40,639 nucleotides of DNA from a virus. Shown here piece after piece: positions 34,773 through 40,639 of the stretch. The notes under the pieces were generated by a model. The model was not told the DNA's origin. It made no database searches and worked only from the letters and a program-made list of their open reading frames with translations. The stretch lies in the IMG/VR virus record IMGVR_UViG_3300045988_026640. One strand, written 5' to 3'. Both the position numbers and the translations under genes were made by a program. Positions within the stretch are counted from its first letter, which is position 1. Each line of letters begins with the position of its first letter.

Positions 34773-34795
34773 CCAGTCGAAAGACTGGTTTTTTT
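34773..34795 (+). terminator. Plus-strand-oriented hairpin + T7 between int and the upstream membrane-protein gene
   Basis: CCAGTC-GAAA-GACTGG followed by TTTTTTT on the + strand, although both neighbouring genes are on the - strand. On the - strand the hairpin lacks a U-tail. Confidence 0.45.
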
Positions 34796-35300
34796 ATTCT
34801 TCCGGAAATAGATTTTCCAATTGATTCCACAACTTGTTAGTGTATCTCATACGTAACAATGGGCGGTAAGGATTCTTGGTGTGAATCGCAATGAATTTGT
34901 CTGTAACATTTTCGGTTGTATATTTTCTGTTATCAACTTTCTTGGCAGACATAGCACCGACAACACCACCGGCAGGGCCAAGCATTGCCCAACCAAGAGC
35001 ACCTCTAGTAATAGCACCCTTTTTCTTAATAGAACCAGTAGTTGTAGTTATCTGTCTAGTCTTTTCGTCCGTTTCTATATTTATGACATCAGATAGTGGA
35101 ATTGGGATATTAGGTGTTCCGGGCAATACCAGGATTTGTTTTTGATCATCGACAGAAATCCCAGCACCTATCTTTCTAAGGTTACAAGATTTAATGATTG
35201 CTTTGTACTGTTCCCGTGTCTGTTTCGGAATTTTAGAAAGTTTCACGGCTTGATAGACCAATACAATGGAAACGATAATTAAAAGTAATGCTAATAACAT
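34794..35300 (-). CDS. Membrane-anchored protein (168 aa); candidate superinfection-exclusion / prophage defence protein
   Basis: N-terminal TM helix is LLALLLIIVSIVLVYQAV. An internal Gly-zipper-like hydrophobic segment is GALGWAMLGPAGGVVGAM. It lies between int and the repressor gene. Confidence 0.65.
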   Translation of the reverse strand: MLLALLLIIVSIVLVYQAVKLSKIPKQTREQYKAIIKSCNLRKIGAGISVDDQKQILVLPGTPNIPIPLSDVINIETDEKTRQITTTTGSIKKKGAITRGALGWAMLGPAGGVVGAMSAKKVDNRKYTTENVTDKFIAIHTKNPYRPLLRMRYTNKLWNQLENLFPEE

Positions 35301-35794: not shown

Positions 35795-35823
35795 TTGACA
35801 TTCGAATTAAATCGAATTATAAT
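35795..35823 (+). promoter_or_regulatory. Perfect-consensus early lytic promoter with an embedded operator-like sequence
   Basis: TTGACA (35795-35800), a 17-nt spacer TTCGAATTAAATCGAAT, then TATAAT (35818-35823). The spacer contains the palindrome ATTCGAAT. Confidence 0.7.
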
Positions 35824-38012: not shown

Positions 38013-38177
38013 GAAAGAACACCCCTAGCCGTGGCAGTGAGCTAGTGAGGAAACTGAACGATACCAACTAAGTAAGCAACAACGATTTGATATTCATAAG
38101 TCTCCTTAAATTATATATGAATTAAAAAACCTCACTAGCTTTCTAGCGCGGTTAGGGAATAAGAAAGGAAGTTGAAA

Positions 38178-38333
38178 ATGAAAAAACTTATTAAATGGCT
38201 ATTTGTAAAAGAGAAACAAGAACCGGAATATTTCTTCGAACCCGTATGGACACCATACGAGGAAAACGAACGCAAATACGAAGCTCGCAAAAAACGTGAA
38301 CAAGAGCTTTTGGCAAAATACGGAAACCGATAA
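38178..38333 (+). CDS. Hypothetical small charged protein (51 aa, below the ORF-track cut-off)
   Basis: Read manually as MKKLIKWLFVKEKQEPEYFFEPVWTPYEENERKYEARKKREQELLAKYGNR. SD AAAGGAAG lies upstream. Confidence 0.4.
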   Translation: MKKLIKWLFVKEKQEPEYFFEPVWTPYEENERKYEARKKREQELLAKYGNR

Positions 38334-38549
38334 GATCACAATCTTCAATCCGTAGCCACGGCCCCATCGTGGAGTGTAACTTATACCTTTCCCCAAAAAA
38401 TATAAACTTTACCCACATTTCACACAAATACCTTTCTAAAAAAACATTGAAAAACATGAAACGGTGGGCTATGGGTGCGGATTGAAGCACTAAAAAAAGC
38501 ATGGGTTAGGGCCCATGCAAGAAAAAAACATTTACAAGGAGATTATACC

Positions 38550-40301
38550 ATGATTTCACAAACAATTGCAAAACCATCTTACGTTAAGACTAAAGCATTC
38601 GGTCTTTGTGGCACGCTAGCTCTCGCTACAGCATTGCTTATCGGTGCTGGGTCAGTATCAGCGGACGAAACTGCTGCACCAGTAGCAGACACACAACCAG
38701 CGGCTGCTAATGTGTACACTGCTGACAACGCTGGCAATGTGACAGTAACACCAAGCGAAACAGTGACGGAAACACCAAAATTTTTGGCACCGGCACCAGT
38801 AGAATCTCAACCAGTAGCTGAAACACCAGCAACAACTACAGAAGCAGCTCAACCAGTAGCTGAAACACCTAAACAGCCTACTGAATTTGTCAAAGAAGAC
38901 AACGAAATTAAAGTAACTAATCCAGATGTTGTCGTTGACCAATCAAACGGAACTGGTAAATACAGTGGTTTTACAGTGGAATATAAAGACGTTAAATTCC
39001 CAGATAGCATGCCTATCAATGAAGGGGATAAGGTAACATTCAACCTTCCAAAAGAAATCAACTTCCAAACAAACTATGATTTTGATGTCTATAACCCAGA
39101 AAAAGCTGTTGTTGGTAAGGCTTCAACTGACCCTAAGACACAAACAGTAACAACCGTATTTAACGATTACTTCAAGAACCATCCACTCAATAAACAAATG
39201 TCATTGAAGCTCGATGCTAAGTGGACTGACAAGGTTGAAAGTGGCAAGCCAGTTAACGTTAATTTCAATGGTACAGTGGTTACTGTAAATATTGGAAAAG
39301 AGCAAGAAATCGGTAAAGATGAATTGCTTTCTAAATGGGGTAGTCAAGACGAGAATGACCCAACTGTTATCAACTGGACTGCTCGTATTAACTACGCTAA
39401 ACGTCTATTGAATTACGTCACAATCATTGATGAGATGAGTGATAATCAAAAGCTTGTTGATAATTACTTCGAAATCAAATCGATTGAAAGCGTAGACCCT
39501 TGGATTGATAAAGGTTCTGCTATGGATTTAGTAAAATCAATCAGTAAATCAGACCACGGTTTCACAATTAAAATGGATCGCCTTGATCATATGATTTATA
39601 TTAACTATAAAACTAAATTGATTAAGCCGGTTAAAGATAGCGTAAACCCAACCAATAAGGTTGAGTTGAAAGCTGAGTCAGACGGTGCTATCTCACACAG
39701 TTATGTCCAACTTGTCGGTGGCCGTGGTGATGCCAGCGGCGAAAACAAACCAGAACCAACGTTTGAAATTCCACACGATGCACCTAAAGTTGAAATCCCT
39801 GAGTGGAATGGTGGGGTTACACCTCCAGACGCTCCGAAGTATGACAAGCCAGAATTTAATGGTGGTGTAGTGCCTAATGAAGCACCTATCCACGATAAGC
39901 CAGAATTCCAAGGCGGCATTCCGGGCATTCCAGAAGAACGTGAGCTCCCACCGTTCGAAGGCGGCGTAGTGCCAAACGATGCTCCTATCTTGGATTTGCC
40001 AGAGTTGCACATCCCAGAGGAACCAACTAAACCAACACCAGAAAAACCTAGCACGCCAGAAAAAGCCCCTAAAACGAGCGTAGAGCGTCCTAATAACAAA
40101 GTGGCACAATATACCACGGCATCTTATAAACTCGATTCTGAGCCAAAAGAGGGGGTAAATACACCCGTTTACGGTGGTACTCTTCCAGTTACTGGTGAAA
40201 AAGAAGGTATCATGTCAACTCTAGGCTTGGTGGTGATTGCAACAGGCATCACCGCATTGACTCTCGGATTCAAGGAATACAGCGAGGATGAAAATGATTA
40301 A
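38550..40301 (+). CDS. LPXTG cell-wall-anchored surface adhesin (MSCRAMM / Cna-SdrG-like A domain + Pro-rich repeats)
   Basis: ATG 38550 follows AAGGAG. The signal peptide ends SVSA/DE. The A domain has a TVTTVFNDYFKNH motif (compare TYTFTDYVD) and ends ...VQLVGGRGDASGE. About four DAPxxDxPEFxGGVxP repeats follow. The sorting signal is LPVTG + hydrophobic segment + short tail. Confidence 0.85.
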   Translation: MISQTIAKPSYVKTKAFGLCGTLALATALLIGAGSVSADETAAPVADTQPAAANVYTADNAGNVTVTPSETVTETPKFLAPAPVESQPVAETPATTTEAAQPVAETPKQPTEFVKEDNEIKVTNPDVVVDQSNGTGKYSGFTVEYKDVKFPDSMPINEGDKVTFNLPKEINFQTNYDFDVYNPEKAVVGKASTDPKTQTVTTVFNDYFKNHPLNKQMSLKLDAKWTDKVESGKPVNVNFNGTVVTVNIGKEQEIGKDELLSKWGSQDENDPTVINWTARINYAKRLLNYVTIIDEMSDNQKLVDNYFEIKSIESVDPWIDKGSAMDLVKSISKSDHGFTIKMDRLDHMIYINYKTKLIKPVKDSVNPTNKVELKAESDGAISHSYVQLVGGRGDASGENKPEPTFEIPHDAPKVEIPEWNGGVTPPDAPKYDKPEFNGGVVPNEAPIHDKPEFQGGIPGIPEERELPPFEGGVVPNDAPILDLPELHIPEEPTKPTPEKPSTPEKAPKTSVERPNNKVAQYTTASYKLDSEPKEGVNTPVYGGTLPVTGEKEGIMSTLGLVVIATGITALTLGFKEYSEDEND

Positions 40302-40639
40302 GAAATTTGAATTAGATTTATCGTCTAAAATCACAATGTTCGGAATCGAGCTATTCAGAATCAAAGCCTTGATTTCGTTCGACAATGTCAAAAAAGGCGA
40401 GTTAGGCGGATATGTTGAAAAAGAAGAAAACCTATCCCATTCTGGTAACGCATGGGTCTCTGGTGACGCAATGGTCTCTGGTAACGCATGGGTCTCTGGT
40501 GACGCAATGGTCTCTGGTGACGCATGGGTCTATGGTGACGCATGGGTCTATGGTGACGCAAGGGTCTCTGGTGACGCTGAGGTCTATGGTGACGCAAGGG
40601 TCTATGGTGACGCAAGGGTCTCTGGTGACGCTGAGGTCT
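40294..40639 (+). CDS. N-terminal part of the hexapeptide-repeat protein (continues at nt 1; 184 aa in total on the circle)
   Basis: The ATG overlaps the adhesin stop (ATGATTAA). The translation is MIKKFELDLSSKITMFGIELFRIKALISFDNVKKGELGGYVEKEENLSH, followed by 11 x (S/Y)G(D/N)AxV. There is no stop before the window end. Confidence 0.75.
   Translation, partial: MIKKFELDLSSKITMFGIELFRIKALISFDNVKKGELGGYVEKEENLSHSGNAWVSGDAMVSGNAWVSGDAMVSGDAWVYGDAWVYGDARVSGDAEVYGDARVYGDARVSGDAEV
40441..40638 (+). repeat. Tandem 18-bp coding repeat, 11 units
   Basis: The units of consensus TMTGGTRACGCNNKGGTC run back to back from 40441. The last three units (40585-40638) are the same DNA as nt 1-54. Confidence 0.95.

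Follow-up and report, generated by a model that had tools for sequence, protein, structure and literature searches.

A predicted MSCRAMM-type adhesin gene in the early region of a temperate Streptococcus salivarius phage

Why should a phage carry, amid its early genes, a gene for a protein that looks built for display on the bacterial surface? The question is raised by IMG/VR virus record IMGVR_UViG_3300045988_026640, a stretch of 40,639 nucleotides (nt) called the window here, in which a plus-strand open reading frame (ORF) of 583 amino acids (aa) at 38550-40301 had been described in an earlier note as a phage-borne LPXTG adhesin with an RGD motif and repeats like those of fibronectin-binding proteins. 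Our analysis favours, with a probability of about 0.6, an accessory, sortase-anchored adhesin of the MSCRAMM type (microbial surface components recognizing adhesive matrix molecules), carried as cargo by a temperate siphophage of S. salivarius and benefiting the bacterial host; its anchoring, ligand binding, timing of expression and benefit are what we infer from sequence. The gene family has already been annotated, as 'LPXTG cell wall surface protein, collagen binding domain protein' in phage YMC-2011, as NCBIfam NF043031 and as 'sialidase' in Javan phages, and a literature search found no functional or experimental study of it. As far as we have checked, the head-swapping cargo slot, the loss of the cargo from dairy phages and the covarying leader RNA set out below are undescribed.

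Fold and family of the adhesin

Pfam recognizes Big_8 at aa 148-229 (7e-13), above the curated cut-off, and Collagen_bind (PF05737) at aa 258-357 (7.8e-11; 42.7 bits against a cut-off of 27.5), and the NCBIfam model NF043031, 'SIALI-17 repeat-containing surface protein', matches three stretches of the protein with 70.4 bits against a cut-off of 30. Searching 1.84 billion cluster representatives with the A domain returned only 307 clusters at E<=1e-3, and 40 of these (alignment A1) served as the input for an AlphaFold (AF2) model of aa 105-410. The model is all-beta with two domains and a mean predicted local distance difference test score (pLDDT) of 96; Foldseek against the PDB retrieved SdrE, Bbp, ClfA, SdrG, Cnm, Cna, ClfB and RspB with E values of 1e-17 to 1e-15, template modelling (TM) scores of 0.6-0.69 and sequence identities of 14-17%, and ranked closed, ligand-bound structures (5wtb, 5cfa, 1r17) above the matching apo forms (5wta, 5cf3, 1r19). 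Given this identity to the solved MSCRAMMs, ligand specificity is not transferable from them.

The single protein found no match in a sequence search of the PDB, for which a profile of diverse homologues was needed. In its alignment, VTvtFnDYfekh of the family pairs with ITYTFTDYVDKYE of SdrG and Bbp, and the latch of SdrG, IAFSTSSGQGQGD, is matched by vklvgGsGdasGe; in this copy, TVTTVFNDYF falls on TYTFTDYVD and GGRGDASGE on the latch. Because both motifs are placed on their SdrG counterparts, the equivalents of TYTFTDYVD and of the latch had been assigned correctly in the earlier note, and its description of an LPXTG adhesin with a two-domain ligand-binding region of the Cna/Sdr type is borne out by the agreement of Pfam, the AF2 model, Foldseek and the profile alignment, homology search and structure prediction of the A domain both leading to an adhesin fold. 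By its predicted fold and its motifs the protein is a genuine MSCRAMM-type adhesin in the sense of Foster et al. 2014. PHROGs has no family for the adhesin, and BFVD holds only one other viral protein with this fold.

The ORF is real and constrained. It has more than 8000 homologues, and its A domain is under strong purifying selection (dN/dS = 0.075, dS ~1.25). The ATG lies eight bases after AAGGAG; we take it as the start and reject a longer reading of 608 aa from a GTG, which has no ribosome-binding site and crosses a conserved RNA hairpin. Every motif listed in the earlier note is present in the sequence. By eye, the predicted signal peptide has a lysine-rich n-region, a hydrophobic core AFGLCGTLALATALLIGAG and then GSVSA38|DE, and QPVAETP occurs in the following spacer at aa 87 and 101, within an exact 22-nt DNA repeat; of the two copies reported for this repeat, the second, at 38848, was placed correctly and the first begins at 38806 rather than 38807. 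Proline-rich repeats with cores of the form PEF/PEW/PPF-xGG at aa 417, 434, 451 and 467 (n=4) lead to the pre-anchor segment (Table 1).

The sorting motif LPVTG occupies aa 545-549 (nt 40182-40196) and is followed by 21 hydrophobic residues; homologues have LPNTG, LPHTG, LPVTG or LPSTG. The tail of this copy consists of a single lysine, K575 (the 31st residue from the Leu of LPVTG), and EYSEDEND. Its acidity had been singled out as an anomaly but is a family trait: FKKYNEGEEE is a common tail, and its Glu and Gly codons double as the Shine-Dalgarno sequence of the next gene (GGTGAGGAAGAA TAA TC ATG; here GAGGATGAAAATG, containing GAGGA), and homologues with a more distant next gene start end in KKYNEK. 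Only the KE of this copy is unusual, KK standing ahead of the acidic end in 118 of the 120 closest homologues.

Among known systems, the protein resembles Cna of S. aureus, Cnm of S. mutans, Ace of E. faecalis and RspB in having two tandem immunoglobulin G (IgG)-like domains, of which Collagen_bind is the second, and an LPXTG anchor; the profile alignment with Cna covers ~260 residues (E 4.9e-13), and Foldseek TM scores for this collagen-binding group are 0.63-0.69. It differs from this group in its low sequence identity, in a SIALI-17 stalk in place of Cna_B repeats (Pfam found no Cna_B match at E<=1 in the adhesin) and in being phage-borne, and collagen binding does not follow from the likeness. 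The staphylococcal proteins SdrG, SdrE, Bbp, ClfA and ClfB provide the best structural matches (E ~1e-17) and share the TYTFTDYVD-equivalent and the glycine-alternating latch, but the phage protein has neither Ser-Asp repeats nor B domains and comes from another host genus and genetic context. Its own family comprises NF043031, Ssal_phage00024 of YMC-2011 and the genes of Javan534/535/536/539 and SA-TP2, with which it shares slot, sorting signal and leader and from whose phage members it departs in the K-to-E change of the tail and in an extra YdcK-like gene downstream. The GenBank label 'sialidase' on the homologous gene in MK448799.1, MK448800.1 and MK448979.1 (Javan535/539/534) is likely an annotation error; we rejected it for the present protein, in which Pfam shows no sialidase domain.

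The cargo slot and its occupants

The position of the gene in the early region had seemed odd, yet all six S. salivarius phage records examined (YMC-2011, Javan534/535/539, Javan536 and SA-TP2) have a homologue in the same place. The order is an ORF of ~50 aa (phrog_1022 in the window), the adhesin and then a replication module, of which there are four different kinds among these phages, and a chromosomal prophage adjoining rplS has the same arrangement. Equally ordinary in this phage gene family is the absence of a terminator together with the overlap between the adhesin stop and the next ATG (40294, within ATGATTAA), likewise noted as peculiar: across the relatives, the next gene starts 2-5 bases past the adhesin stop or overlaps it.

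Relatives of the adhesin occur on 196 contigs of IMG/VR, and the content of the slot was surveyed by scanning IMG/VR for the leader motif described below, which gave at least 120 loci. An MSCRAMM gene follows the leader in 92 of them. Several others carry a protein of 548-636 aa with an Adhesin_P1_N plus GbpC head, of the antigen I/II (AgI/II) type, on the same SIALI-17/LPXTG/KKYNEGEEE tail, and one holds a chimera (Table 1), which indicates that heads may be swapped on a common SIALI-17/LPXTG stalk. Further states of the slot are one internal deletion and, in some loci, a 106-aa ORF straight after the leader. The YdcK-type gene appears to be another optional occupant, because in S. vestibularis phage SVep1 it lies directly behind the leader.

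Phages of S. thermophilus, the dairy species, present the slot without its cargo. Four S. thermophilus-type contigs (L094, L148, L156 and L202) have a stub of the cargo gene, among them one of 43,075 bp that we take to be phage O1205; in a contig of 37,184 bp, presumably phage 5093, the slot is empty, and a contig of 34,815 bp has a stub-type start with no recognizable ribosome-binding site. The stub is joined to sequence that in S. salivarius phages is found just past the adhesin stop (ATTGAAGTGGTGGGAGGGTAGG) and, for this reason, reads as a deletion scar, by which the dairy phages would have lost the cargo. Such a loss fits the history of their host, since S. thermophilus has lost many surface adhesins and has a sortase pseudogene in several strains. 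With the slot empty, stubbed or otherwise filled in related phages, the adhesin is dispensable for phage growth.

A-domain identity to the window copy is 56% for YMC-2011 and Javan536 and 75-80% for Javan535 and SA-TP2, while Javan311 of S. mitis (L220, 4746-6410) and Javan371 of S. parasanguinis (L221, 4737-6353) encode adhesins whose A domains are 73-79% identical to it. Because these lie closer to the window copy than does that of YMC-2011, alleles appear to have been exchanged between phages of different species. In Javan311 and Javan371 the adhesin sits inside the replication module and has no leader, and its placement within early operons is thus recurrent in phages of oral streptococci. 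Outside phages, the close relatives found in a single-protein scan of GTDB species representatives were confined to two taxa, S. salivarius and the S. parasanguinis group, and one 70%-identical homologue has a non-phage setting. Base composition was tried as a sign of recent acquisition, with a negative result (G+C 42.4% for the gene, 42.0% for the phage).

With tblastn, remote similarity to the A domain (28-29% identity, 74-97% coverage) also turned up in phage records from unrelated hosts, namely four from Listeria and one from Campylobacter (phage CJLB-5, MW057932.1). An adhesin fold of Gram-positive bacteria is unexpected in the latter, which may reflect contamination or a wrongly assigned record.

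Transcription and the leader RNA

A consensus scan placed the sole strong plus-strand promoter upstream of the adhesin at 35795-35823, before the cro-like gene; in S. thermophilus phages, it is from such a perfect sigma-A site ahead of cro that transcription first starts (PMC13575424). Between this promoter and the adhesin, neither the scan nor comparison with relatives revealed a plus-strand terminator or a conserved promoter, so the adhesin is by default probably co-transcribed with the early genes. The earlier note had suggested checking 38340-38540 for a separate promoter. Consensus scanning found no dedicated sigma-70 promoter in the 216-nt gap at 38334-38549, which proved instead to hold a conserved structured RNA leader. 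Two sets of candidates were discarded: a promoter-like site at 38087-38114, upstream of orf53, is not conserved, 105 of 135 distinct loci having no site of at least 9/12 there, and the -35-like hexamers TTGAAA, TTTACA and TTGAAT before the 3' arm of the leader helix show, by eye, no consistent -10.

The leader is dominated by a long-range helix of 22 bp that encloses a variable, AT-rich loop. Across 130 distinct sequences, 99.4% of the cells in the helix are paired, against 20-44% in slid controls; compensatory double changes occur in 16 of 28 pairs, and the observed covariation score was reached by none of 500 shuffles. G.U pairs fit the plus strand only, length changes in the two arms appear by eye to be matched in the alignments, and the single-sequence fold has a minimum free energy (MFE) of -43 kcal/mol with z = -5.5. 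Reading the local hairpin CCACG/CGTGG as a terminator or pseudoknot was rejected, as RNAalifold and covariation favour the long-range helix. Rfam has no match in the window or the leader.

The leader is not specific to the adhesin. It is found without annotation in 287 phage records, most of them from S. thermophilus; in Sfi11, for example, the cro-like genes stand on one side of it and a Gam/Sak4/helicase replication module on the other. It thus offers a separate lead on how early genes are controlled in those dairy phages that have been sequenced most. The helix might be a site of RNase III processing or of regulation.

Downstream of the helix, covariation supports a second hairpin (38499-38518) as well. 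An invariant A-run stands just ahead of it, and the few mismatches it shows would be G.U pairs on the minus strand only; for these two reasons it looks like an intrinsic terminator for leftward transcription. Over the adhesin start codon, the minus strand has an extended -10 promoter-like site, TTGCAA-18-TGgTATAAT (38571->38542), in which the TATA-C-ATG spacer is invariant. We hypothesize that the two delimit a cis-antisense RNA of 45-50 nt opposite the ribosome-binding site. Another element with the same architecture, an A-run and then a hairpin that resembles a minus-strand terminator, was observed at 38124-38148 in the gap before orf53.

One might go further and propose, for the whole S. 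thermophilus/S. salivarius phage supergroup, a regulated cargo slot heading the replication operon, in which the leader RNA sets the timing and amount of the adhesin (or of the first replication gene), possibly through RNase III processing or antisense control; interchangeable LPXTG adhesins, with MSCRAMM or GbpC/AgI-II heads on a shared SIALI-17 stalk, would fill the slot in host-associated phages, and dairy phages would have emptied it. We hold this proposal tentatively, at rather less than even odds.

Table 1 Coordinates of the adhesin gene, its control region and related loci. Positions refer to the window unless a contig is named.
Feature	Position	Strand	Basis or remark
Early rightward promoter, TTGACA-17-TATAAT, 12/12	35795-35823	+	upstream of cro-like gene
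Small conserved ORF (53 aa, phrog_1022)	38172-38333	+	precedes the leader in related phage records examined
Conserved structured 5' leader RNA	38343-38549	+	helix 38346-38370/38461-38484, A-run, hairpin 2, Shine-Dalgarno AAGGAG 38537-38542
Candidate cis-antisense small RNA	38490-38571	-	promoter-like site; terminator hairpin 38518->38499 plus U7
Predicted signal peptide, aa 1-38, cleavage after SVSA	38550-38663	+	sequence inspection
Thr/Pro/Ala-rich N-terminal spacer, QPVAETP duplicated	38664-38882	+	sequence
Predicted MSCRAMM-type ligand-binding region, aa 112-398	38883-39743	+	Big_8, Collagen_bind, TVTTVFNDYF, latch VQLVGGRGDASGE
SIALI-17 proline-rich repeats, four good copies and one degenerate	39762-40019	+	NCBIfam, sequence
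Pro/Lys/Glu-rich pre-anchor (wall-spanning) segment	40020-40181	+	sequence
Sorting signal: LPVTG, 21-residue hydrophobic segment, K575, acidic tail EYSEDEND	40182-40301	+	sequence
5' part of YdcK-type beta-solenoid repeat gene (184 aa)	40294-40639	+	continues at 56-264, window circular
GbpC-headed adhesin	L134:5206-7113	-	same slot and leader
GbpC-headed adhesin	L108:1436-3187		same slot and leader
GbpC-headed adhesin	L144, L145, L198		same slot and leader
Chimera in slot (one locus)	L182:6805-8463
14-codon stub, MKTSKITTIEVVG-	L156:327-368 (43,075-bp contig)		S. thermophilus-type phage

Function and surroundings

How might such a protein work? Placed in a conserved cargo slot that opens the replication operon, immediately after the structured leader, the adhesin would be transcribed by default from the early cro promoter, probably with control at the RNA level, exported by Sec with cleavage of the signal peptide after SVSA and joined to peptidoglycan by sortase A at LPVTG. 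The SIALI-17 region and the pre-anchor segment would hold the head off the wall, and the two IgG-like domains would bind a host or pellicle protein, either by dock-lock-latch or by a collagen hug, in which the GxGxAxG strand conserved in the family would serve as latch; the expected ligand is a peptide or collagen-like. The benefit would most likely go to the bacterial host in its oral or gut niche, through colonisation or aggregation, rather than to phage replication.

The closest functional precedent is a prophage-carried surface protein with an LPXTG motif, SasX/SesI of a phiSPbeta-like prophage in S. aureus ST239 and S. epidermidis, which is credited with nasal colonisation (PMC7047976, PMC7285666). 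SasX is not known to be a two-domain MSCRAMM or to lie in an early or replication operon. Phage SM1 of S. mitis provides a second comparison, its PblA/PblB and lysin conferring adhesion to host components such as platelets and fibrinogen (PMC2920869). These differ from the adhesin in that PblA and PblB are virion tail proteins and the third is the SM1 lysin; they reach the surface after lysis and are not sortase substrates.

If the cargo reading is right, differences between strains of a commensal in how they adhere and colonise can travel by phage, which extends the case beyond the pathogens of SasX and PblA/B. Temperate phages of S. salivarius commonly carry and exchange complete MSCRAMM- or GbpC-type adhesins, and keep them under purifying selection. 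This probiotic species is one of the dominant early colonisers of the human mouth and small intestine; the adhesin gene is frequent in human metagenomes, and lysogens (57.I, JIM8777, JF) exist.

Several points weigh against a host-benefiting adhesin. The place of the gene in the early lytic operon predicts that it would be repressed in lysogens, barring an unrecognized promoter or read-through, and it has neither the promoter nor the terminator of its own that mark a classical moron. Its G+C content matches that of the phage (42.4 vs 42.0%), and the head is only 14-17% identical to solved MSCRAMMs. A lone lysine followed by acidic residues could weaken retention for sortase, and the literature search gave no experimental study of expression, anchoring or binding for any family member.

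The first of these points leads to the main rival, in which production of the adhesin, from the early transcript, awaits infection or induction and serves the phage rather than lysogenic conversion, for instance by clumping infected cells together with nearby hosts or by tethering them in biofilm, so that progeny reach fresh hosts. We place this rival foremost because nothing in the sequence speaks for expression from a repressed prophage. The gene belongs to the operon of the cro promoter, from which neither a terminator nor a conserved promoter separates it, the adhesin is translationally coupled to the next early gene, related adhesins lie within the replication modules of Javan311 and Javan371, and early expression would, we presume, allow sortase anchoring before lysis. 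On the other side, virulent and temperate S. thermophilus phages from which the adhesin is cleanly deleted replicate well, and the head found on the other cargo protein, of the GbpC/AgI-II type, belongs to a family whose annotation is that of adhesins of oral streptococci. We know of no precedent for an adhesin with a role in the lytic cycle, and consider this explanation unlikely, though it deserves to be taken seriously.

Considerably less probable is a role in superinfection exclusion or surface masking, in which the anchored protein would keep out related phages by changing the cell surface or by capturing them on arrival. No MSCRAMM is known to act in exclusion, and the MSCRAMM trench, the strong purifying selection and the swap to a glucan-binding-type head all point to host or matrix ligands. 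The predicted surface location would suit such a role, and there is a precedent in the group, whose temperate phages do encode surface-exposed exclusion proteins such as Ltp of TP-J34 (PMC3952083). Genes of the Ltp type, however, lie between integrase and repressor and are expressed in lysogens, and the window phage has its own candidate at that position (34794-35300).

This candidate is a 168-aa ORF on the minus strand between the integrase and the cI-like repressor, and it matches only PHROGs families of unknown function. The same region of the lysogeny module is occupied by orf203 of Sfi21 and the Ltp lipoprotein of TP-J34, both candidates for superinfection exclusion.

The remaining reading, an adhesin directed at integrins through RGD and at fibronectin through a tandem beta-zipper of the DKPEFxGG repeats, is the least probable of all, and the behaviour of both elements speaks against it. 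The tripeptide is present (aa 392-394, nt 39723-39731), but the 120 closest homologues (identity of 80% or more) divide into 74 with KGD, 45 with RGD and one with CGD. In alignment A1 the family-wide latch pattern is GxGxAxG, with R and D on variable positions, and distant relatives have GSGTADG, GGGSATG and similar sequences at the site. RGD also lies within a high-confidence predicted beta-strand (model residues 287-294), the latch, which aligns with that of SdrG. We therefore regard the motif as incidental, and a function in integrin binding is not supported.

As to the repeats, DKPEFNGG bears a superficial likeness to the DKPSYQFGG of FnBPA. The DAPxxDKPEFxGG units belong to the SIALI-17 repeat of NCBIfam; Pfam found no Fn_bind match at E<=1 in the protein, when PDB sequences were searched with the repeats, nothing beyond a chance ribosomal protein came up at E<=10, and inspection of the repeats for an ED(T/S) motif found none. 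Their copy number ranges from 1 to 5 across homologues, and the same module is borne unchanged by the GbpC-headed proteins of sister phages. Shared as they are with this different head, the repeats act like a general-purpose stalk, rich in proline, or a module that spans the wall, and the FnBP likeness first proposed for them is unsupported.

The genome in which the cargo adhesin resides is that of a complete phage. Bases 1-55 of the window are an exact copy of 40585-40639, and because of this 55-nt terminal duplication we regard the window as a whole circular genome of 40,584 bp that the assembly opened within a gene. In the early region, integrase, a cI-like repressor, a cro-like gene, antirepressor, a helix-turn-helix (HTH)/xis-like gene and small ORFs precede the adhesin, and a YdcK-type beta-solenoid gene, orf106, DnaB_2, DnaC-like, RecT and DUF1351 genes follow it; next come terminase, structural genes and lysis genes. 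The phage is assigned to S. salivarius as a temperate siphophage and is a mosaic, related through its structural genes to S. salivarius phage Javan535 and through its lysogeny module to SA-TP2 and YMC-2011; it is also related to S. thermophilus phages. The gene downstream of the adhesin, previously read as a hexapeptide-repeat gene, encodes a YdcK-type beta-solenoid repeat protein (Pfam PF18836, 1.8e-14) rather than an acyltransferase hexapeptide protein, and is built on an 18-nt tandem repeat of at least nine copies.

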